Assembly (NCBI GenBank): GCA_035525455.1 | Contig: DATLEF010000209.1 | Span: forward strand, 1 to 63,984 | DNA length: 63,984 nt | DNA from: Burkholderiales bacterium | Lineage (GTDB): Bacteria; Pseudomonadota; Gammaproteobacteria; Burkholderiales; SG8-41 | Direction: 5' to 3' | Shown: piece after piece, positions 43,803 through 53,063 of the stretch | Layout of the letters: each line of letters starts with the position of its first letter | Position numbering within the stretch: position 1 is the first letter of the stretch | Notes under the pieces: generated by a model | The model's input: the letters and a program-made list of their open reading frames with translations, nothing else | Databases searched by the model: none | What the model was told of the DNA's origin: nothing | Made by a program: the position numbers and the translations under genes

Positions 43803-45056
43803 TCAGCGATTGGCGATGTCGAGTAGCGCCGCGGTCAGCACGCGCGCGCCGGCCGCGAGATCCTCCGGCTTCGCGTTCTCGGCTTCGTTGTGGCTCACTC
43901 CTTTCTCGCACGGCACGAAGATCATGCCGGTGGGACAGAGCCGCGCCATGTACATCGCGTCGTGGCTGGCGCCCGAAGCGAGACGCATGTTGGTGATGCC
44001 CAGATCGTTCGCGGCACGCTCGATCACGTCGGCTACGCTCTCGTCGAATGCACACGGCCCATCACGGAGCGTCGCAGCAACCGTCACCGTGCACGGACCT
44101 GCTTCCTTGCGCGCGATCGGTTCGACCGCCGCCGCAAGCCGGTCCGCTGTCTGCGCATCCGGGTGCCTCAGATCGACCGAAAACAGGACATGGCTCGCGA
44201 CCGAATTGGGGGAGTTAGGTGTGACGAGCATGCGCCCTACCGTATAACGCACGGCATCGCCAGCATCGAGCGCGAGTGATTCGAGCGCCCGGATGATGCG
44301 CAGCGCCGCGCGCAACGCGTCCTTGCGCGCACCGAGGGGTGTGGTGCCGGCATGCGCACTCTCGCCGAACACCTCGACATTGAACCAGCGCAGCCCCTGT
44401 ATGCCGGTGACCACCCCGACGGTCTTGTCTTGCAACTCCAGTAAAGGCCCTTGCTCAATGTGAGCTTCGATATACGCCGTCGCGGGGGTATTGAATTCCC
44501 GGCGGCGCACCTCTGGTGTCGCCGCCAGCGTCTCTGCGAGCGCGGCGCCGAGGACATTGCCGTCGTTGTCTTTGATGTCCAGGAAGTCGCTGAGTGCGCG
44601 CGCGCCGCTGAATACGGAGGAGCCCATGGTGCAGGGCGCGAACCGGCCGCCTTCCTCGTTACTCCATGCAACGAGCTCGATCGGACGCCGCGTTTTCAAA
44701 CCGGCCTCGTCAATCGCTTCGAGCGCTTCCAGAGCAGCCAGCACGCCGTATATGCCATCAAAGCGGCCGCCGCGCGGCTGACTGTCCATGTGACTGCCGG
44801 CCATCACCGGCGGCGCATCGGCTTCGACGCCGGGGCGCCGTACGAACATATTGCCGATATCGTCAATGCTCACGCTGAAGTTACGGGCGTGAGCCCACGA
44901 CAGCAGTAGACGGCGGGCGCGGATGTCTTCCGCGGAAAAAGCAGCCCGGTTCACTCCATCGCCCGGGATGGCGCCGATCTCCGCCATCTGCATGTGGCGC
45001 TCCCACAGCCGATCTGCATCGACACGTTCGACGGCGTCCTGAATGTCTTCTCTCAT
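43803..45056 (-). CDS. M20-family amidase (N-carbamoyl-amino-acid / allantoate amidohydrolase type)
   Basis: ATG at 45056 overlaps the Bug stop (ATGA). SHMDSQPRGGRFDGIYGVLAALEA...WSNEEGGRF motifs. Confidence 0.8.
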   Translation of the reverse strand: MREDIQDAVERVDADRLWERHMQMAEIGAIPGDGVNRAAFSAEDIRARRLLLSWAHARNFSVSIDDIGNMFVRRPGVEADAPPVMAGSHMDSQPRGGRFDGIYGVLAALEALEAIDEAGLKTRRPIELVAWSNEEGGRFAPCTMGSSVFSGARALSDFLDIKDNDGNVLGAALAETLAATPEVRRREFNTPATAYIEAHIEQGPLLELQDKTVGVVTGIQGLRWFNVEVFGESAHAGTTPLGARKDALRAALRIIRALESLALDAGDAVRYTVGRMLVTPNSPNSVASHVLFSVDLRHPDAQTADRLAAAVEPIARKEAGPCTVTVAATLRDGPCAFDESVADVIERAANDLGITNMRLASGASHDAMYMARLCPTGMIFVPCEKGVSHNEAENAKPEDLAAGARVLTAALLDIANR

Positions 45057-46021
45057 TCCGCTTTGATTCCTGCTGTGCGTACGACCTTGGCCCATTTGGC
45101 GACATCGACTCTGATGCGCTCAGCGAGCTGTTCGGGGCCGCCGGGCGAGACAAACCCACCGACGGTGAGCAGCCGCTCCTTCACATCCTGCAGCGCTAGC
45201 GCTTTCTGTACGTCCGCGTTGAACTTCGTCACGATCTCCCGCGGTGTGCCGGCCGGCATCATGACCCCGAACCAGGAGTCGGCCTCGAAGCCTTTCAGAG
45301 ACTCACCGATCGTCGGTACCTCGGGAAGCGCAGGCGATCGCGTCGACGATGCGACACCAAGCGCGCGCACTTTGCGCGATTTCACGTGCGGCAGCGCGGA
45401 AGGAATACTGTCGAAGAAAAGCGCGACGTGGCCGGCGATGAGATCTGCTATGCCCGGAGCGCTGCCTTTGTAAGGCACGTGCAGCGCAGTGAATCCGCCC
45501 ATCTGCTTGAGCATCTCCTGCTCGAGATGAGACAGCGTGCCGGGGCCTTGCGACGCAAAATTGAGTGCACCCGGCTGTGCTTTGCCCAGCGCAATGAGCT
45601 CCTTCACGTTGCGCGCGGGCAGCGTTGGATGGGCTACGAGTATGTGTGGCACATTGCCAACGAGCGATACCGGCACGAGATCTTTTTCGAGGTTGTAATT
45701 CAATTTCGCATACGTGCTCATTCCGATCGCGTTGGTCGTCACCGCGGCCATGACCGCGGTGTATCCATCAGGCGCGGCTTTGGCTGTGAGCTCGAGACCC
45801 AGATTGCCGCCTGCACCAGGCCGATTGTCGACGATCACCTGGTGTCCCCATGCATCACCGAGTTTCTGCCCGAGCGTGCGCGACAATAAATCCGCCGCAC
45901 CGGCCGGGGGGAAAGGCACGATAAGCCGCACTGCTTTCGCAGGATAAGTTTGTGCTTGCAGTGGATGCGCCGCCAGCGTCGCGCAGCAGGCGATGAATAG
46001 CGACCACAACGCACGACGCAT
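45053..46021 (-). CDS. Bug-family (TctC-like) tripartite tricarboxylate transporter substrate-binding protein
   Basis: ATG at 46021. Signal peptide, then YPAKAVRLIVPFPPAGAADLLSRTLGQKL...VDNRPGAGGNLG. Confidence 0.88.
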   Translation of the reverse strand: MRRALWSLFIACCATLAAHPLQAQTYPAKAVRLIVPFPPAGAADLLSRTLGQKLGDAWGHQVIVDNRPGAGGNLGLELTAKAAPDGYTAVMAAVTTNAIGMSTYAKLNYNLEKDLVPVSLVGNVPHILVAHPTLPARNVKELIALGKAQPGALNFASQGPGTLSHLEQEMLKQMGGFTALHVPYKGSAPGIADLIAGHVALFFDSIPSALPHVKSRKVRALGVASSTRSPALPEVPTIGESLKGFEADSWFGVMMPAGTPREIVTKFNADVQKALALQDVKERLLTVGGFVSPGGPEQLAERIRVDVAKWAKVVRTAGIKAE

Positions 46022-46079
46022 GAGACATCTCCGATTGGCGTGCGTGATCGGTGATAGCCGCAACCGCGCGTCGGCGAAC

Positions 46080-46174
46080 TGGCGGAAGAGAGTGGGAGTC
46101 GAACCCACGCAGGACCGCCTGCGGCCCCTACCGGGTTTGAAGTCCGGCCGCCCCACCGGGAGCGATTCCCTTCC
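46080..46174 (-). tRNA. selC: tRNA-Sec (anticodon UCA), CCA encoded
   Basis: The reverse complement is GGAAGGGAATCGCTCCCGGTGGGGCGGCCGGACTTCAAACCCGGTAGGGGCCGCAGGCGGTCCTGCGTGGGTTCGACTCCCACTCTCTTCCGCCA (95 nt). It has an 8-bp acceptor stem and a long variable arm, and is nearly collinear with E. coli selC. Confidence 0.95.
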
Positions 46175-46506: not shown

Positions 46507-47412
46507 CTATATGAGCGCTTGTTGCAGCGCGGCAGCCGCCCGTCGTGCGTCATCGAGCGCAGCGCCCAAAGTGCCGCCGAACTGGCTGCGCACGGCGCCG
46601 ATCGCGGAGACTCCCGCGACGTTCGTCTGCAACGCATCATTAACGCGCAGGAAACGGTTCGCATCGCGCTCGACATCATTCGCCAGAAATTCCACGTTGG
46701 GCTCGAGACCGATGTAGGCGAAAACACCTGCGCACGGCAGGTCCTCGGTGCGGCCGTCGGCGTGTTTCAACTGGGCCTTCTCGACCATTTTGGAGCCGTC
46801 GATCGCCTGAACGGTTGCATTCCAGATAACCCGAATCTTGTCGTTGGTTCGCACCTGGTCGGCAAAATGCGGTGTGCCGGTGAATGTATCTCGGCGATGT
46901 ACCAGAGTCACCCGCCGACAGTACTGCGCGAGCACCAGCGCTTCCTGCAGTGCCGAGTCTCCACCGCCGACCACGATGACTTCTTCGTTCTGATACATGG
47001 GCCCGTCGCAATCGGCACACTGGGAAACGCCGCGGCCCTCGTATTCCGCTTCGCCGGGAACGCCCAGCTTTTTCAAGCGTGCGCCGGAGGCGACGATGAC
47101 GCAGCGGGCGCGATACGACCCGGACGCGGTCACGATCTCTTTTTGATCACCGTTATTGCGTACGAGCGTCACCGGCTCCTGAATGCTCGTGACACCCGCT
47201 TCGGCGTTCGCCTGCATCATTCCTGCAGCGAGCTCGGCACCCGATGTCGGCTGGCCTGCGGGAACCGGATCGAGCTCGTTCACATTGATGACGAGGCCCC
47301 CGAAGAGCTGTCCTTCGATCGTTGCGACTTTGAGTCCGGCCTGGGCGAGCATGCCGGCGGCGCTGAGCCCGCTCACGCCCTCGCCGATCACGATTACGTC
47401 ATGAATAGACAC
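46507..47412 (-). CDS. Thioredoxin-reductase-like FAD/NAD(P)H disulfide oxidoreductase
   Basis: DVIVIGEGVSGLSAA (FAD), redox-active CADC (compare TrxB CATC), VVGGGDSALQEA and HRRD (NADPH). It starts 12 nt after the selB stop. Confidence 0.85.
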   Translation of the reverse strand: MSIHDVIVIGEGVSGLSAAGMLAQAGLKVATIEGQLFGGLVINVNELDPVPAGQPTSGAELAAGMMQANAEAGVTSIQEPVTLVRNNGDQKEIVTASGSYRARCVIVASGARLKKLGVPGEAEYEGRGVSQCADCDGPMYQNEEVIVVGGGDSALQEALVLAQYCRRVTLVHRRDTFTGTPHFADQVRTNDKIRVIWNATVQAIDGSKMVEKAQLKHADGRTEDLPCAGVFAYIGLEPNVEFLANDVERDANRFLRVNDALQTNVAGVSAIGAVRSQFGGTLGAALDDARRAAAALQQALI

Positions 47413-47424
47413 GTGCGTATCCCT

Positions 47425-49425
47425 TTATCGTCGGTATGTTTGAAGCGGCCGCCGCGGAGGTCCCGTGGGCTTGGCCTGTGCTTTTGCGGGCGGCCGCTGG
47501 ACTGGGCTCGCTGCACCCAGTATCGGCACAAAATCCTTCCGCATCTTGCGCGCATCGCCAAGGCGCTGAGTAATGCCGAGCGTGTCCAGAAATTCGAGGA
47601 TCTCGATCGCGAGGCTGCGTCCAACTCCGGTCGCATCACGGTATTGGGCTGCAGTGAATTGCCCGTTCGGCTGCCCCTGCGCCGTAGCCTGAGCGATCGC
47701 CGCGAGTGTCGCCAGCGTAGACCGCGTGTAGAAGCGATCGGCCGTGACCTTGAGCACTTCGCCGCTCTTCGCTTTGCGATGAAGAAAATCCTTGACGATG
47801 CCTTCCTTCAATTTGACCTGCAGCGCAAGCTCGCGCAGCGGCGGCGAGTTGAAACCGGCGCTTTCGAGCGCCGGCCGAACAGTCTGCCACATTCGATCGT
47901 CCGCGGCGTTCGCCGTCGCGTCGTGGCCCGCGATGCGCGCGGTCGAGCCGCTCGCCTCTATTTTGCGCTCGTCCGTGAGACGTCTCAGAAACGAGCCGAA
48001 CATGTCAGCGCTCAGGTCCGGCGCAACCGATCTGCGCAGCGTTTCCACTTCCTGCCCCACTGCCTGTGGGTGCTCGCTGTGGAAGCGCAGGAGCTCCGCA
48101 ACGATGGCTTCCTGTAATGCCTGGTAATGTCCGCGTGTGACAGCGACCCGCGCATCTTTGCCTAACTGCACGAGCTCCGCATTCGCGTAGAGTTGCGTTG
48201 CACGCTCCCGCGTCAGGTTGTACACCACCTCGAAACGCCGCAGATCGATCACGCGCTCGCCGGTGCGCAGCAATTCGGACAGCGCGGTCTCGGGCGCGTC
48301 GTGCTCGAGCGCTGCGAGCTCGACCTTGCGCGCTGGGGACGTGCGGCGCGTCGCCGGAGCGAATGGGTCGAGGACGAAGCCGCCGCCTATGGTGCGCGTG
48401 GCTGACTGGTCGCGCAGAATGAACCGATCACCTCGCAGTGCGCAAATCGGCTGATCGAGCACGAGCTGGGCCACCGCCCCAGTACCCGGCTCAAGCGCTG
48501 TCCCTTGCCGGGTGGCGATACGCGCGGTTACATCACTGGTTGCAAGATGCAAATGGACCGGCGTCCAATGCTCGAGCGCACGAGCTTCGGCGCCCAATAC
48601 CGTCACGCGAGCGTCGAGGCGTCGAGTCGGGCGATGGAGCTCAGGCGCGACAACCCAATCCCCGCGATGCACGGCTTCGAGACCGGCGCCCGTCAGATTG
48701 AGCGCGCAGCGTTCACCCGCTGATGCGCCCTGTGCAACGTCGCCCTTGATCTGTATGCCCCGCACACGCACTTCCTGCCCCGCCGGCGAGACGACGAGCT
48801 TGTCGCCCACCTTCACGACTCCGTTGAAAACCGTGCCGGTAACCACCGTGCCGCTGCCGGCCACACTGAACGTGCGGTCGACTGCGTATCTGAAATTCTG
48901 GCCCGCGGATAGCCGGGCCGAATGCTGCATCGCTTCCGCAATAAGAAGCTCGCGAAGCTCCGTCATTCCGGATCCGGTGACAGCCGAAACCGCTATCACC
49001 GGCACATGCGCGAGCTGGGTGCTCTGAACGAGCGCGGCGACCTGCTGCTCGACTTCGCGAACACGATCGCTGTCAACGCGATCGGTTTTGGTAATGACTG
49101 CCACGCCGCGATTCACGTGCAGCAGATCGAGGATATGCAGGTGCTCTATCGTTTGCGGCATGATGCCATCGTCCGCTGCCACGACGAGCAACGAGAAATC
49201 GATGCCGCATACGCCTGCCAGCATGTTGCGTATGAAGCGTTCGTGGCCCGGAACGTCAACGAAACCGATCAGCTTGCCGTCAGGCAGCGGCAGATACGCA
49301 AAACCCAGGTCGATCGAGATGCCGCGCGCTTTCTCTTCCGGCAGACGGTCGGTGTCGACGCCGGTCAATGTCTTCACGAGCAACGTCTTGCCGTGATCGA
49401 TATGGCCTGCAGTCGCGACGATCAT
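47425..49425 (-). CDS. selB: Selenocysteine-specific translation elongation factor SelB
   Basis: MIVATAGHIDHGKTLLVKTLTGVDTDRLPEEKARGISIDLGF...DVPGHERF and a long winged-helix C-terminal extension. 666 aa. Confidence 0.93.
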   Translation of the reverse strand: MIVATAGHIDHGKTLLVKTLTGVDTDRLPEEKARGISIDLGFAYLPLPDGKLIGFVDVPGHERFIRNMLAGVCGIDFSLLVVAADDGIMPQTIEHLHILDLLHVNRGVAVITKTDRVDSDRVREVEQQVAALVQSTQLAHVPVIAVSAVTGSGMTELRELLIAEAMQHSARLSAGQNFRYAVDRTFSVAGSGTVVTGTVFNGVVKVGDKLVVSPAGQEVRVRGIQIKGDVAQGASAGERCALNLTGAGLEAVHRGDWVVAPELHRPTRRLDARVTVLGAEARALEHWTPVHLHLATSDVTARIATRQGTALEPGTGAVAQLVLDQPICALRGDRFILRDQSATRTIGGGFVLDPFAPATRRTSPARKVELAALEHDAPETALSELLRTGERVIDLRRFEVVYNLTRERATQLYANAELVQLGKDARVAVTRGHYQALQEAIVAELLRFHSEHPQAVGQEVETLRRSVAPDLSADMFGSFLRRLTDERKIEASGSTARIAGHDATANAADDRMWQTVRPALESAGFNSPPLRELALQVKLKEGIVKDFLHRKAKSGEVLKVTADRFYTRSTLATLAAIAQATAQGQPNGQFTAAQYRDATGVGRSLAIEILEFLDTLGITQRLGDARKMRKDFVPILGAASPVQRPPAKAQAKPTGPPRRPLQTYRR

Positions 49426-50831
49426 CGACTGAAATCCAGGTTACCGAGCTGGGCGACGAAACCGTGCTCGTCGTCGAGGCAGCGCAGGTCCATCAGAAAA
49501 GCGCCGTCTTTGATGCGGCCGATGACGGGCACGGGCAAAGCACGAAACGCTTTAGCGATGATCTGCACGGCGGACGTTTTGTTTTTTCCCGTACTGACGA
49601 TCGCGATTCCGGCGCTGGGCAGCGATTCGACCGGCAGCGAGCCGCTTCCGATCTGGCTCGCGCACTGAATGACCGTAGCGCTCGCTTTGCCATTGAGGAC
49701 GGCAAGGATGCGCGGCAAGAGGCGCGCAGCAAGCGCTTCCAATTCAGCGACTGGACGCGTGAGTGCGGACATTATGGGCAATTCGTCTTTCAGCCGCTGC
49801 GGGTTGGCATAAAGCTGCAATACGGATTCCAGAGCAGCCAACGTCATCTTGTCGACTCTCAGCGCGCGTTTCATCGGGTTCTTCTTGATGCGCTGGATCA
49901 GATCTTTGCGGCCGACGATGAGACCCGCCTGCGGGCCGCCGAGAAGCTTATCGCCGCTGAACGTAACGATGTGGGCGCCCTGCGCGAGCGCTTCGCGCGG
50001 CGTAGGTTCGTGAGGCAGGCCGTATTCTTCCAGATCGACGAGCGTGCCACTTCCCAGATCGACGATGAAGGGCAGCTCGTGTTTGCGCGCAAGGGCTGCG
50101 AGATCCGCTTCGGAAACGGCCGCAGTAAAGCCCTGGATCGCATAGTTGCTCGTGTGCACCTTCATGATGGCTGCGACGCGCGGCCCGATGGCGTCGGCAT
50201 AATCCCTGGGGTGCGTGCGATTCGTTGTGCCAACTTCGTGAAGCTTGCAGCCCGCGCGCGACATGATGTCGGGAATGCGAAACGCGCCTCCAATTTCGAT
50301 CAACTCTCCGCGCGAGACGAGGACTTCCTTTTTCGCCGCAAGCGTATTCAACACGAGATATACGGCCGCCGCGTTGTTGTTGACCACTACGGCGCTCTCG
50401 GCACCGGTCAGTCTCGTCAGCCAACGCTCGACGTGCTGATCGCGTTCGCCGCGAGCGGCGCCGTCGAGATCGAATTCGAGGTTAACCGGACGCGTCATCG
50501 CCTGCACGACGGCGTCGGCGGCGCAGCGCGGCATGACCGCGCGCCCGAGATTGGTATGCAGCACCGTGCCGCTGAGATTGAAAACAGGCTTCAGTGACGG
50601 TTGGGCGTCCTGGATCAGCTGTGTTGCACAACGTTCAATGAACGCGGCTTCGTTGAAGCTCCAATCGGCTCGTTCGCCGAGTGCAGCGCGCTCGCGATCG
50701 AGCTGCGTGCGCAAAGCGTCGACTACGAGCGGCCTGCCATAGCGCGAGACTAAAGTCGCGACGCGCCTGTCGTTGAGAAGCCGATCGACCGCTGGAAGCG
50801 CGCGACGCGCGGCCGCAGCCGTGTTCAGCAC
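49422..50831 (-). CDS. selA: L-seryl-tRNA(Sec) selenium transferase SelA
   Basis: GTG start. NLSGTVLHTNLGRA, GELIEIGGAFRIPDIM, KVHTSNY and FSGDKLLGGPQAG (PLP lysine). ATGA overlap with selB. Confidence 0.93.
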   Translation of the reverse strand: MLNTAAAARRALPAVDRLLNDRRVATLVSRYGRPLVVDALRTQLDRERAALGERADWSFNEAAFIERCATQLIQDAQPSLKPVFNLSGTVLHTNLGRAVMPRCAADAVVQAMTRPVNLEFDLDGAARGERDQHVERWLTRLTGAESAVVVNNNAAAVYLVLNTLAAKKEVLVSRGELIEIGGAFRIPDIMSRAGCKLHEVGTTNRTHPRDYADAIGPRVAAIMKVHTSNYAIQGFTAAVSEADLAALARKHELPFIVDLGSGTLVDLEEYGLPHEPTPREALAQGAHIVTFSGDKLLGGPQAGLIVGRKDLIQRIKKNPMKRALRVDKMTLAALESVLQLYANPQRLKDELPIMSALTRPVAELEALAARLLPRILAVLNGKASATVIQCASQIGSGSLPVESLPSAGIAIVSTGKNKTSAVQIIAKAFRALPVPVIGRIKDGAFLMDLRCLDDEHGFVAQLGNLDFSR

Positions 50832-51028
50832 GGCTGCAGGCGAAGTCGAATGAGTGGAGGCGGAGCCGGAAAGCCTGCTCTGCGCGATAACAGCATGGCA
50901 ACGGTGGAGCGTGTGGAGCGCGCTAGTTTAACTCAAGCACGGAGCGCAATCTAATCGATACGCGGCCGGCGTCGAGGGCATGTGCTCGCGAAAACCCGCG
51001 CTGGTGCGCGGCTTTTGCTCTGCTGCGG

Positions 51029-51802
51029 TTACTCCCAAAGCCTTTCGGGCAGCGGCAGCCCCGCCAGATCCTGAGGCGTCGGGCGCCGCTCGGGCTGTAT
51101 GCCGTAGCGCTCCAATACGGCGGCGAGTTGGCGCGCGTGCTGCGCGGAATGCCACGTCGAGCGCTCCAGGAGCTGATGCATCGGCTGAGGTCCGTAGAAC
51201 GTGGGGGCGTTCTGCGTGCAGGATTTGTCCGCGAGCTGCGACCACCATGTTTCGAGGCGGGCGATGACCTGATCGCCGTAGTCCGCGACATGCTTACCCG
51301 TCGTAAAGGTGCCTTCGGCGGGCGGTACATTGGCGTGCTGGACCGCGTACACCACGTTATCGTTTACCGTCTCGAGAAACGCTTCGCCGATGCGGAAAAC
51401 ATGATGCGCGAGCAGCCGTAGGGCGCGATCGCGATTGGGAATCACGCGGTCGCTCATCTTGTCGTCTGGAATCTGACGTATCAGGCTTTGCGCGATACGC
51501 AGGACGTTGGTCCATTTGGCAATGAGCTCGTGCGGCGGTAACGGTGTGTGCCCCGTGCCCTGGAGGCCGACGAACTCGGCAACATCTTCGAGATTCTGTC
51601 CGAAGACGAATTGCCCGCCCTTCGATACGACCGGCACGTTACGCACGCCGAGCTTGAGCAAACGCTCGCGGCCGCCGGCATCGTTCAGCACGTCGACTGC
51701 GTCAAACTCGATGCCTTTGCGCGAAAGAAACTCTTTCGCCCGTAGACAGCTGCTTCAGCCGGGCTGTGTAAAGAGAACGAATCTGTCTGCGACGGTGTTC
51801 AT
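51029..51802 (-). CDS. Candidate selenoprotein: glutaredoxin-like (U-S-S-C) domain fused to a DinB-like domain; in-frame TGA (Sec) at 51755-51757
   Basis: Track ORFs 51755..52000(-) and 51029..51691(-) share a frame and are separated only by the TGA. Read-through gives MNTVADRFVLFTQPG-U-SSCLRAKEFLSRKGIEFDAVDVLNDAGGRERLLKLGVRNVPVV..., a complete Grx/NrdH fold. The C-terminus has DinB-like His residues. The sel genes are adjacent. The start could also be ATG 51820. Confidence 0.75.
51721..51739 (-). promoter_or_regulatory. Candidate bacterial SECIS hairpin
   Basis: The mRNA reads UGA + 15 nt, then GCGAAAG AGUUU CUUUCGC (7-bp stem). The apical loop contains G-U, about 24 nt after the UGA. Confidence 0.5.
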
Positions 51803-51911
51803 GGGGGATCCAGAGAGCATGAAAAGGGAATGCAAGGCTACTCCCGCGCTATTCGCAGCGTCAAGGCGGGAGACATCGCGGCGTGCGTAGTGCGCGAGGC
51901 GCAGCAAGGCG

Positions 51912-53063
51912 TTACTGATTCGGCTCAGCGCGAGTGCCCGCGGGACATCCGCTTTGCGACGCGGCAGCGTGATCCTTTTGCGCGGATTCGATGATCCCAC
52001 CGCCGAGACATACCCGGCTTTCGTAAATCACGACCGACTGCCCGGGTGTCACCGCCCACTGTGCCTCTGCGAAGTCCACGACACAGTGCTCGCTATTCAC
52101 GTCCACTATCGTACAAGGCGCATCCTTCTGGCGGTATCGCGTTTTCGCTCCGTACACCCATTGGCAATGGGGAACAGTTCCGGCGATCCAGTTCAGCCGC
52201 ACTGCGCTCACCTGGAGTGAATACAACGCGCGGCTCTCGCGTCCCTGTACCACGACGAGGCGATTGCGCTTCATGTCTTTGTCGACGACGTACCAGGCAT
52301 CGCCGTCGCCGTCGCGCTGCCCGCCGATGCGAAGGCCCTGGCGCTGGCCCAAGGTATAAAACATTAGGCCCATGTGCTCGCCGACGATGCGTCCATCCAG
52401 GGTGTAGATCTCGCCCGGATTGGCAGGCAGATAGCGGTTCAGAAATTCCCGAAACGGCCGCTCACCTATGAAACAGATTCCCGTGGAATCGCGCTTGTCG
52501 TGATTCGGCAGCCCTTCTCGCCGTGCGATATCGCGTACCTCACGCTTGTACAGGCCACCCAGCGGAAAGAGCGTCTTCGAAAGCTGCCGCTGGTCGAGCC
52601 GATACAGAAAATAGGTTTGATCCTTCGATCCGTCTTCGGCCTTGACGAGCTGATACAGACCGTCCACTTCACGAACGTGCGCATAATGACCGGTCGCGAT
52701 GTAGTCCGCGCCCAGCGTCAGCGCGTGATTGAGGAATGCGCGAAATTTGATTTCCGCGTTGCACAGCACGTCCGGATTCGGCGTGCGTCCGGCACGATAC
52801 TCGGACAGGAATTCGCTGAACACGCGCTCTTTGTATTCGGCCGAAAAATTGACGGCGTCGATTTCGATGCCGATGCGGTCGGCGACGGCAACAGCGTCCA
52901 CGAGGTCCTGTCGCGAGCTGCAATACTCGTCGTTGTCGTCGTCTTCCCAGTTCTTCATGAAAAGACCGACGACCTCGTGCCCCTGCTGCTTGAGCAGCAG
53001 CGCTGCGACCGCCGAGTCGACACCGCCCGAGAGGCCCACGACGATACGTTTTCTTGCCGGCAT
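51912..53063 (-). CDS. mnmA: tRNA 2-thiouridine(34) synthase MnmA
   Basis: [18 protein letters not shown] (PP-loop), [16 protein letters not shown] and TGHYA motifs. Confidence 0.94.

Follow-up and report, generated by a model that had tools for sequence, protein, structure and literature searches.

The selenocysteine insertion sequence (SECIS) elements of fdhF and fdnG in Escherichia coli, which are hairpins lying directly after the UGA and exposing a G-U in their loop, resemble in these two respects the element described here, and a minimal upper stem-loop of about 17 nucleotides (nt) suffices in E. coli. The wider bacterial consensus (the bSECISearch model of Zhang and Gladyshev, summarised in PMC13188914, Fig. 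2A) describes a stem of 4-16 bp closing a loop of 3-9 nt with a G in its first two positions, according to the scheme N1(0-1)-G-[G/U]-N-N2(0-1) with pairing of N1 and N2, at 16-37 nt from UGA to loop and with a free energy ≤ -7.5 kcal/mol. Selenoproteins of the glutaredoxin (Grx) fold (PF00462, UxxC) have been listed from Clostridia and Deltaproteobacteria (PMC13188914 and PMC1794560). Also, a selA-selB-selC operon has been found beside fdhA in Alpha- and Betaproteobacteria, and formate dehydrogenase was the sole selenoprotein in the Betaproteobacteria covered by that 2006 survey (PMC1794560). Here we analyzed a stretch of 63,984 nt from a Burkholderiales bacterium (assembly GCA_035525455.1, contig DATLEF010000209.1, positions 1 to 63,984; hereafter the window), in which a gene encoding a glutaredoxin fused to a DinB/YfiT-like domain contains an in-frame UGA followed on the minus strand by a 19-nt hairpin. 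Based on sequence comparison, this hairpin is very probably the bacterial SECIS element of that gene.

The UGA joins two mechanical open reading frames (ORFs) that lie in one frame. On the minus strand, the sequence runs CCC GGC UGA, then the spacer, then the six codons of the hairpin (codons 22-27), and continues with CGC AAA. We numbered the hairpin from G0 to C18 (19-mer RNA GCGAAAGAGUUUCUUUCGC), with a 5' arm G0 C1 G2 A3 A4 A5 G6, a loop A7 G8 U9 U10 U11 and a 3' arm C12 U13 U14 U15 C16 G17 C18. The original prediction, made from the sequence alone, had proposed a candidate bacterial SECIS on the basis of a 15-nt spacer after the UGA, a perfect 7-bp stem with the loop AGUUU and a loop G-U lying 24-25 nt past the UGA. 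Spacer, stem and loop were confirmed to the base, and the distance is correct when counted from the A of UGA; that the hairpin is a SECIS is supported by the comparative evidence presented below, not by the hairpin itself. UGA16 itself is a predicted Sec (selenocysteine) codon that takes the place of the first Cys in a CxxC redox motif, because it lies in frame in the Grx domain, is TGA in 79/79 scorable orthologues and corresponds to Cys in homologues.

When compared to the consensus, the in-frame UGA lies directly upstream and aligns with Cys in homologues, and a 5-nt loop sits on a 7-bp stem. RNAfold adds an A7-U11 pair, which gives 8 bp and a GUU triloop. The loop A-G-U-U-U thus has A7 and U11 able to pair around a G8 that is invariant in 80/80 orthologues, and 22 nt (51754-51733) separate UGA and loop. 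Taken alone, the 19-mer has a folding energy of -8.6 kcal/mol (z = -3.3), and the stretch of UGA plus 40 nt reaches -12.3 kcal/mol. The element of the window thus agrees with the consensus in loop and stem size, loop pattern, spacing and energy; orthologues in which the G0-C18 pair is missing are borderline for energy. Folding the region with RNAfold had been suggested along with the original prediction, and the outcome was mixed: the 19-mer is stable, but the 43-nt and 71-nt contexts are unexceptional (z = -1.0 and -1.2). As for the functional side of the definition, the structure is under selection (a synonymous freeze that is absent in Cys forms, and covariation of outer pairs) and the genes of the cognate machinery (selA, selB with its winged-helix domains, tRNA-Sec) are adjacent. 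Against Rfam at gathering thresholds, only tRNA-Sec was matched in the window; with E up to 10, the region 51500-51950 returned a single spurious match to a luteovirus element.

Like a consensus SECIS, the element is part of the coding region and directly follows the Sec-UGA on its 3' side. In contrast to it, the element has no conserved lower stem, its unit being apparently 17-19 nt, and its core sequence, not merely its shape, is invariant across phyla. The original prediction had found no convincing way to extend the stem, and this holds: a lower stem UGUCU/AGGCA predicted in the window did no better than shuffles across orthologues and was rejected, and no consistent stem extension was found in a diverse set of sequences. 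The conserved unit therefore appears to be a minimal hairpin, unlike the long fdhF stem, and its 17-nt core has the same size as the part that suffices in E. coli. With U of UGA as position 1, the loop G-U falls at G27/U28, compared to G23/U24 in fdhF. The fdhF element also differs by a bulged U (U17), by a spacer of 11 nt instead of 15-16 nt, by a loop G-U 4 nt closer to the UGA (20-21 nt instead of 24-25 nt) and by a long lower helix, whereas the stem described here is A-U rich and has neither bulge nor lower helix. By analogy, the element would work like the fdhF family, but neither its sequence nor its shape places it in the fdhF subtype.

The comparative evidence begins with the orthologues. 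We sampled by similarity 80 loci with 60-81% amino-acid identity from a collection of species-representative genomes, their hosts being mostly metagenome-assembled genomes (MAGs) of Burkholderiales or other betaproteobacteria; 79/79 of them were collinear over residues 1-257. When the codons of 80 sequences were aligned, 158 columns showed a conserved amino acid with degenerate codons, with a median synonymous entropy of 1.06 bits. Just six of these columns are at or below 0.15 bits, and they are the consecutive codons 22-27, GCG AAA GAG UUU CUU UCG, that is the hairpin. The 6-bp core is kept in all 80 sequences; Glu24 is encoded by GAG in 80/80, never by the synonymous GAA, and UUU is found in 79/80. 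By comparison, the spacer codons vary freely (AGC/AGT/TCC, TGC/TGT, CTC/CTT/CTG/CTA and CGG/AGA/CGA/AGG), with five codons used for Leu20, five for Arg21 and both for Cys19. The codons are frozen because the third positions G2, U14 and G17 pair with the protein-fixed C16, A4 and C1, and because the third positions G8 and U11 are loop bases. On the alignment, selection at the RNA level is thus localised to codons 22-27. The hairpin element is dual-coding, and Ser27 is imposed by its 3' arm.

Cys-type homologues served as a negative control. They have the motif QPGC[ST]SCL[KR]TKEFL; a scan for Cys forms returned 80 loci, 59 of which carry TGC or TGT at the Sec position, and 58 Cys forms were analyzed. 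In these, the Lys codon is AAG in 46 and AAA in 12, Glu is GAA in 34 and GAG in 24, Phe is TTC in 39 and TTT in 19, and Leu is CTG in 39 and CTT in only 7; the residue that follows K-E-F-L is usually Leu or Ile, rarely Ser. Most of them (49/58) could form just 2-3 of the 6 core pairs. As the codons for K-E-F-L vary freely in Cys forms, the freeze at the nucleotide level and Ser27 belong to the Sec forms only.

Beyond orthologues, an unconstrained scan of the genome collection for the exact 17-mer gave at least 120 loci. Among the matches listed, 101/120 have an in-frame TGA exactly 16 nt upstream in a U-x-x-C context; about 47 are Grx-DinB genes and about 38 are stand-alone YruB/NrdH-like glutaredoxins of about 80 amino acids, and more than 30 different U-x-x-C contexts are carried. 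According to record titles, these matches come from Rokuibacteriota/Methylomirabilota, Binatia, Chloroflexota, Acidobacteriota, Verrucomicrobiota, Eremiobacterota, Desulfobacterota, Clostridia, Alphaproteobacteria and others. The stand-alone genes, found in Clostridia, Desulfobacterales and others, have an identical 15-17 nt core at an identical distance. The outer pair is G-T in 16/100. Two of the 19/120 listed matches without TGA depart from the others, which are chance-like by a rough estimate for a 17-mer in the collection. First, a Syntrophales MAG (L152, 4782-4799) has TGC (Cys) at the Sec position with the 17-nt hairpin intact, which suggests a recent Sec-to-Cys switch with a relic SECIS. 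Second, an Eremiobacterota MAG (L159, 2642-2658) has TTA at the Sec position together with the 17-mer, for which a pseudogene, an error in sequencing or a variant with Leu could each account. In the window, the core occurs once, even when 2 mismatches are allowed.

To look for compensation we used the pattern TGA-N17-GAAAGAGTTTCTTTC-H, in which position 17 is forced off G (synonymous within Ser) and position 1 is free, because compensation there needs an amino-acid change. U-x-x-C genes made up 113/120 of the matches. Cultured species such as Neobacillus niacini, Desulfofundulus australicus and Clostridium sediminicola are among those that carry the element. When position 17 is A, position 1 is U in 54/58, and when it is U, position 1 is A in 16/21. 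Over the variant set, pair 1-17 is U-A in 54, A-U in 16, G-C in 4, C-G in 1 and other in 39, and pair 0-18 is G-C in 85, U-A in 3, A-U in 2, C-G in 1, G-U in 1 and other in 22; in line with this, residue 22 becomes Val/Leu/Met, Glu or Gly. For covariation, the score is 0.079 compared to 0.019 in shuffles (0/500 reach it), cells with both sides changed number 27 compared to 5.9 in shuffles (0/500), and slid registers all score lower. Thus, the outer pairs 0-18 and 1-17 covary and all four Watson-Crick types occur, so that the covariation which the original prediction had proposed to look for was found in the wider family for the two outermost pairs. With the 17-mer and variant searches combined, more than 200 Grx-like genes have the core at one constant distance from an in-frame UGA.

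Several observations weigh against the SECIS reading. First, hairpins of such quality are frequent by chance, so that the hairpin alone is weak evidence: the window has about 80 perfect 7-bp hairpins per strand compared to about 36 in shuffles, and a hairpin obeying the spacing and loop-G rules follows 16/944 (1.7%) of its minus-strand TGA triplets. Second, the bare 17-nt core folds at -5.2 kcal/mol, above the consensus threshold where orthologues lack the G0-C18 pair, a pair that holds in 37/78 close orthologues. Third, close orthologues show no covariation because the core is invariant, although the hairpin is conserved at synonymous sites in 80/80 and the check named with the original prediction therefore did not refute it. 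Fourth, in the wider sets the search patterns left no room for change in the five inner pairs, the support for which is therefore a synonymous-site argument and not covariation; 35% of closing-pair cells are mismatched, mostly U.C and usually backed by an outer G-C pair. The sequences are also phylogenetically related, and shuffle statistics overstate their independence. Fifth, AAG at Lys23, the third base of which is A5 (51734), could still pair with U13 as G.U, yet 0/80 Sec orthologues use it; this avoidance implies selection beyond base-pairing, perhaps for stem stability or for sequence-specific recognition. Finally, selD was not found in the 64-kb window by an ORF survey and motif search; fdhA, looked for in the same way, was not found there either.

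A sister Sec clade of the Grx-DinB family also goes against a simple picture. In these Reyranella-like sequences (L220, L225, L228, L229, L233, L235, L237, L239, L253, L260, L262, L264, L266, L269, L272 and L273, plus L246 and L257), viewed over the first 72 nt from the TGA, K-E-F-L-S is still encoded and the canonical register is broken (CUCAAAGAGUUUCUAUCGG). Two adjacent conserved hairpins replace the canonical one. The first, GAGACUC-AAA-GAGUUUC, has a loop without G, and the second, UCGGUCC-GUG-GGAUCGA, places a GUG loop 36 nt past the UGA and shows a G.U to A-U change in L253 and L273.

Two delta-proteobacterial MAGs (L108 and L188) carry the module of UGA plus hairpin with a U-P-Y-A motif, that is without resolving Cys. 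In L108 the module stands at the C-terminal end of a 218-amino-acid protein with a long unrelated N-terminal region, which makes a third architecture.

The machinery that would read such an element is encoded next to the gene (Table 1). The selB product has C-terminal winged-helix mRNA-binding domains at about residues 440-630, with Pfam SelB-wing_2 and SelB-wing_3 above their cut-offs and SelB_WH_2nd_bact at 21.6 bits (cut-off 27). We infer SelB binding, the G-U contact and the insertion efficiency, and would order the events as follows. A ribosome on the glutaredoxin-DinB mRNA would arrive at UGA16 with the hairpin, which begins 15-16 nt downstream, at its mRNA entrance. SelB-GTP-Sec-tRNA(Sec) would then bind the apical loop through the C-terminal winged-helix domain, the exposed G8-U9 being the presumed contact. 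The ternary complex, tethered in this way to the A site, would out-compete the release factor RF2 and UGA would be decoded as selenocysteine, after which the ribosome would melt the hairpin and read Ala-Lys-Glu-Phe-Leu-Ser.

Recoding or pausing at the UGA could also be independent of SelB, either as near-cognate read-through or as an attenuator controlling selA-selB. Stable downstream structures are generally known to stimulate read-through elsewhere, the gene lies directly upstream of selA and selB, and a weak terminator-like hairpin stands between them. We nevertheless consider this unlikely. Sec and the catalytic Cys that it replaces are a classic pair, the genes of the full Sec machinery are adjacent and the loop fits the SelB-type G-U consensus. 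Moreover, the same element is found in stand-alone Grx genes away from sel genes, and the distance from the gene to selA, which ranges from about 0.1 to 4.5 kb among orthologues, implies a loose coupling.

Even less probable, in our view, is that constraints on the protein and codons of K-E-F-L-S produce the hairpin incidentally, as an RNA structure without function, with read-through depending on something else. K-E-F-L is conserved in Cys forms too, and the abundance of comparable hairpins and the lack of covariation within orthologues would both agree with such an origin. Yet Cys forms encode the same peptide with free codons and no stem, mostly as AAG/TTC/CTG, whereas Sec forms hold one codon set in 80/80, and no stem-breaking synonymous variant was found in the 80 similarity-sampled Sec sequences. 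The restriction of residue 22, like Ser27, is specific to Sec forms, and the outer pairs covary along with amino-acid changes at residue 22. Also, the sister clade that lost the register carries other conserved hairpins.

That the inverted repeat acts as DNA, either as a site for recombination or as the operator of a dimeric regulator, and not as an RNA structure, is the least probable of all, since the near-perfect palindrome and the symmetric covariation, which a dimer-binding site would also be expected to show, have to be set against its constant presence in the coding region and strand, in a fixed frame 16 nt past an in-frame TGA in unrelated phyla and neighbourhoods, its absence from Cys homologues, the G.U combinations at the outer pair, an asymmetric loop AGUUU as conserved as the arms, and the roughly chance-level number of listed 17-mer matches without TGA.

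We then consider the product of the gene that the hairpin would serve. Its N-terminal domain is glutaredoxin/NrdH-like (Pfam Glutaredoxin PF00462, 51.4 bits vs a cut-off of 22.9, residues 9-66) with the active site G-U16-S-S-C19, and it shares both the fold and the U-x-x-C position of Sec with the known Grx UxxC selenoproteins, to which it belongs. Unlike these, it is fused to a DinB/YfiT-like domain, occurs in a Burkholderiales-type betaproteobacterial host and is linked to selA-selB-selC. The C-terminal domain reaches 22.9 bits with Pfam DinB_2 PF12867, just under the cut-off (24.8). By sequence, the nearest solved chains in the PDB are Grx and NrdH; only the Grx domain was matched in this search and the DinB part went undetected. 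The AlphaFold (AF2) model of a full-length Cys homologue with 49% identity (P0125; pLDDT 94, pTM 0.90) shows a Grx fold followed by a helical bundle, which Foldseek matched to B. subtilis YfiT (1rxq), D. radiodurans DR0053 (6iz2) and the mycothiol-dependent maleylpyruvate isomerase (2nsf) with probability 1.0 and target-normalised TM of 0.65-0.84. The C-terminal domain of this homologue is modelled as the four-helix bundle of these thiol-dependent metalloenzymes; sequence identity is only 12-18%, and none of the solved relatives matched by the fold search has an N-terminal redoxin domain, unlike the gene described here. Three His residues (H134, H218 and H222 in window numbering) are invariant, in an H...HxxxH arrangement.

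In databases, the proteins of the Grx-DinB family are nearly all fragments of 220-238 amino acids that start past the UGA, because gene callers stop at the conserved Sec codon; the truncated products go under the names "hypothetical", "DinB family" or "glutaredoxin". A search at E ≤ 1e-5 gave more than 3,500 homologues, and selenium is absent from the names of the best 120. Against NCBIfam, the full protein scored below the cut-off of every model. The UXX-star and HUGP families, which have a C-terminal Sec, gave weak domain-level matches only and are not the Grx-DinB family.

Table 1. Positions of the predicted selenoprotein gene, its recoding signals and the neighbouring genes in the window.
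Feature	Coordinates	Strand	Details
Predicted selenoprotein gene (Grx-DinB)	51029..51802	minus	257 codons plus UAA stop (51031-51029), by read-through of a single in-frame UGA
UGA	51755..51757	minus	codon 16, predicted to be read as selenocysteine; first position of the U-x-x-C redox motif
Spacer	51740..51754	minus	15 nt, AGCAGCUGUCUACGG, from UGA to stem; codes S-S-C-L-R
Probable SECIS hairpin, G0-C18	51721..51739	minus	stem GCGAAAG/CUUUCGC; codes Ala22-Lys-Glu-Phe-Leu-Ser27
Apical loop	51728..51732	minus	A7-G8-U9-U10-U11 (GUU triloop if A7-U11 pairs)
Invariant core, C1-G17	51722..51738	minus	17 nt, CGAAAGAGTTTCTTTCG
selA (L-seryl-tRNA(Sec) selenium transferase)	49422..50831	minus	TIGR00474, 587.6 bits vs cut-off 267.9
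selB (Sec-specific elongation factor)	47425..49425	minus	TIGR00475, 465.1 bits vs cut-off 242
Thioredoxin-reductase-like flavoprotein	46507..47412	minus	C-A-D-C motif; Pyr_redox_2, 134.5 bits
selC (tRNA-Sec, anticodon UCA)	46080..46174	minus	ARAGORN; Rfam RF01852, 75.8 bits vs gathering score 47
mnmA (tRNA 2-thiouridine synthase)	51912-53063	minus	directly upstream of the selenoprotein gene

The gene order is kept to a large extent among orthologous loci. Of 56 loci with enough flank, selA lies downstream on the same strand in 43, selB is syntenic in 42, and a divergent gene for a thioredoxin-reductase (TrxR)-like protein, wedged in the window between selB and the tRNA-Sec, keeps this place in 34; tRNA-Sec is present in 12/20 compact loci. 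The TrxR-like protein scores 245.8 bits with TIGR01292, below the cut-off (343), and is a plausible candidate for a dedicated reductase of the NrdH-like Sec-redoxin domain. We infer that the product of the Grx-DinB gene would be a Sec-redoxin, reduced by the co-located TrxR-like enzyme and serving a DinB/YfiT-type thiol-dependent active site. As in the fdhA-linked operon, a compact sel cluster lies next to the selenoprotein gene it would serve, but the neighbour is the Grx-DinB gene and not fdhA, and the TrxR-like gene lies between selB and selC. On the other side, mnmA is upstream in 51/60 orthologous loci. The 2-thiouridine (s2U) made by MnmA is the precursor of 2-selenouridine, the other selenium-utilisation trait, and this adjacency may or may not have a functional meaning.

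Regarding other signals around the gene, no sigma-70-like promoter was found in 50700-52000. The 197-nt intergenic region before selA, in which a second SelB-binding hairpin was looked for, folds no better than shuffles (z = +0.85). Just 3' of the stop of the selenoprotein gene, a GC-rich hairpin CCGCGC-ACCA-GCGCGG is followed by GUUUUCG (50990-51011, minus strand); this may act as a weak intrinsic terminator or as an attenuator between the gene and selA, and the scan gave it a score on the plus strand only. An annotation trap lies further downstream, where the mechanical ORF 45053-46156 (minus) of a solute-binding-type periplasmic protein overlaps the tRNA-Sec (46080-46174), so that its true start must be further downstream, around the signal peptide MRRALWSLF.

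Bacterial SECIS elements and Grx (UxxC) selenoproteins are both already known. What appears to be undescribed is the Grx-DinB fusion selenoprotein, its linkage to sel genes in place of fdhA and the invariance of the core across phyla: NCBIfam lacks this family, and a literature search, which older subscription papers lay outside of, turned up neither the family nor anything relevant on the hairpin sequence or on DinB selenoproteins. More speculatively, the 15-17 nt core GAAAGAGUUUCUUUC could be a near-universal, sequence-frozen SECIS cassette for glutaredoxin-fold selenoproteins, a proposal that we find rather doubtful. In that case, the SelBs of at least ten phyla may recognise one and the same hairpin (among the phyla seen are Bacillota, Acidobacteriota, Chloroflexota, Methylomirabilota, Desulfobacterota, Pseudomonadota and Verrucomicrobiota), and the hairpin may impose K-E-F-L-S on the protein and may have travelled with the N-terminal U-x-x-C module into stand-alone Grx, Grx-DinB and U-x-x-A architectures. 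The Burkholderiales island made of Sec-Grx-DinB, selA, selB, the TrxR-like gene and selC may then be self-contained and occupy the place of fdhA (compare PMC1794560). If this is true and not already described, the cassette would provide a portable SECIS for heterologous selenoprotein expression, as well as a one-line search key for the glutaredoxin-fold class of selenoproteins.

Whatever the fate of the cassette proposal, TGA plus the 17-mer is a highly specific search key for Grx-type selenoproteins, and the conservation of the core far exceeds what the published consensus implies. The element also offers a clean natural case of dual coding, in which an RNA structure sets codon choice and even Ser27. 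Once the UGA and the hairpin are recognised, the catalytic N-terminus is regained, and a selenoprotein family emerges whose members are wrongly annotated throughout public databases. Finally, the association of a predicted Sec-redoxin-DinB/YfiT protein with sel genes and a TrxR-like reductase suggests that soil and freshwater Burkholderiales have a selenium-dependent pathway for thiol-redox reactions or detoxification.

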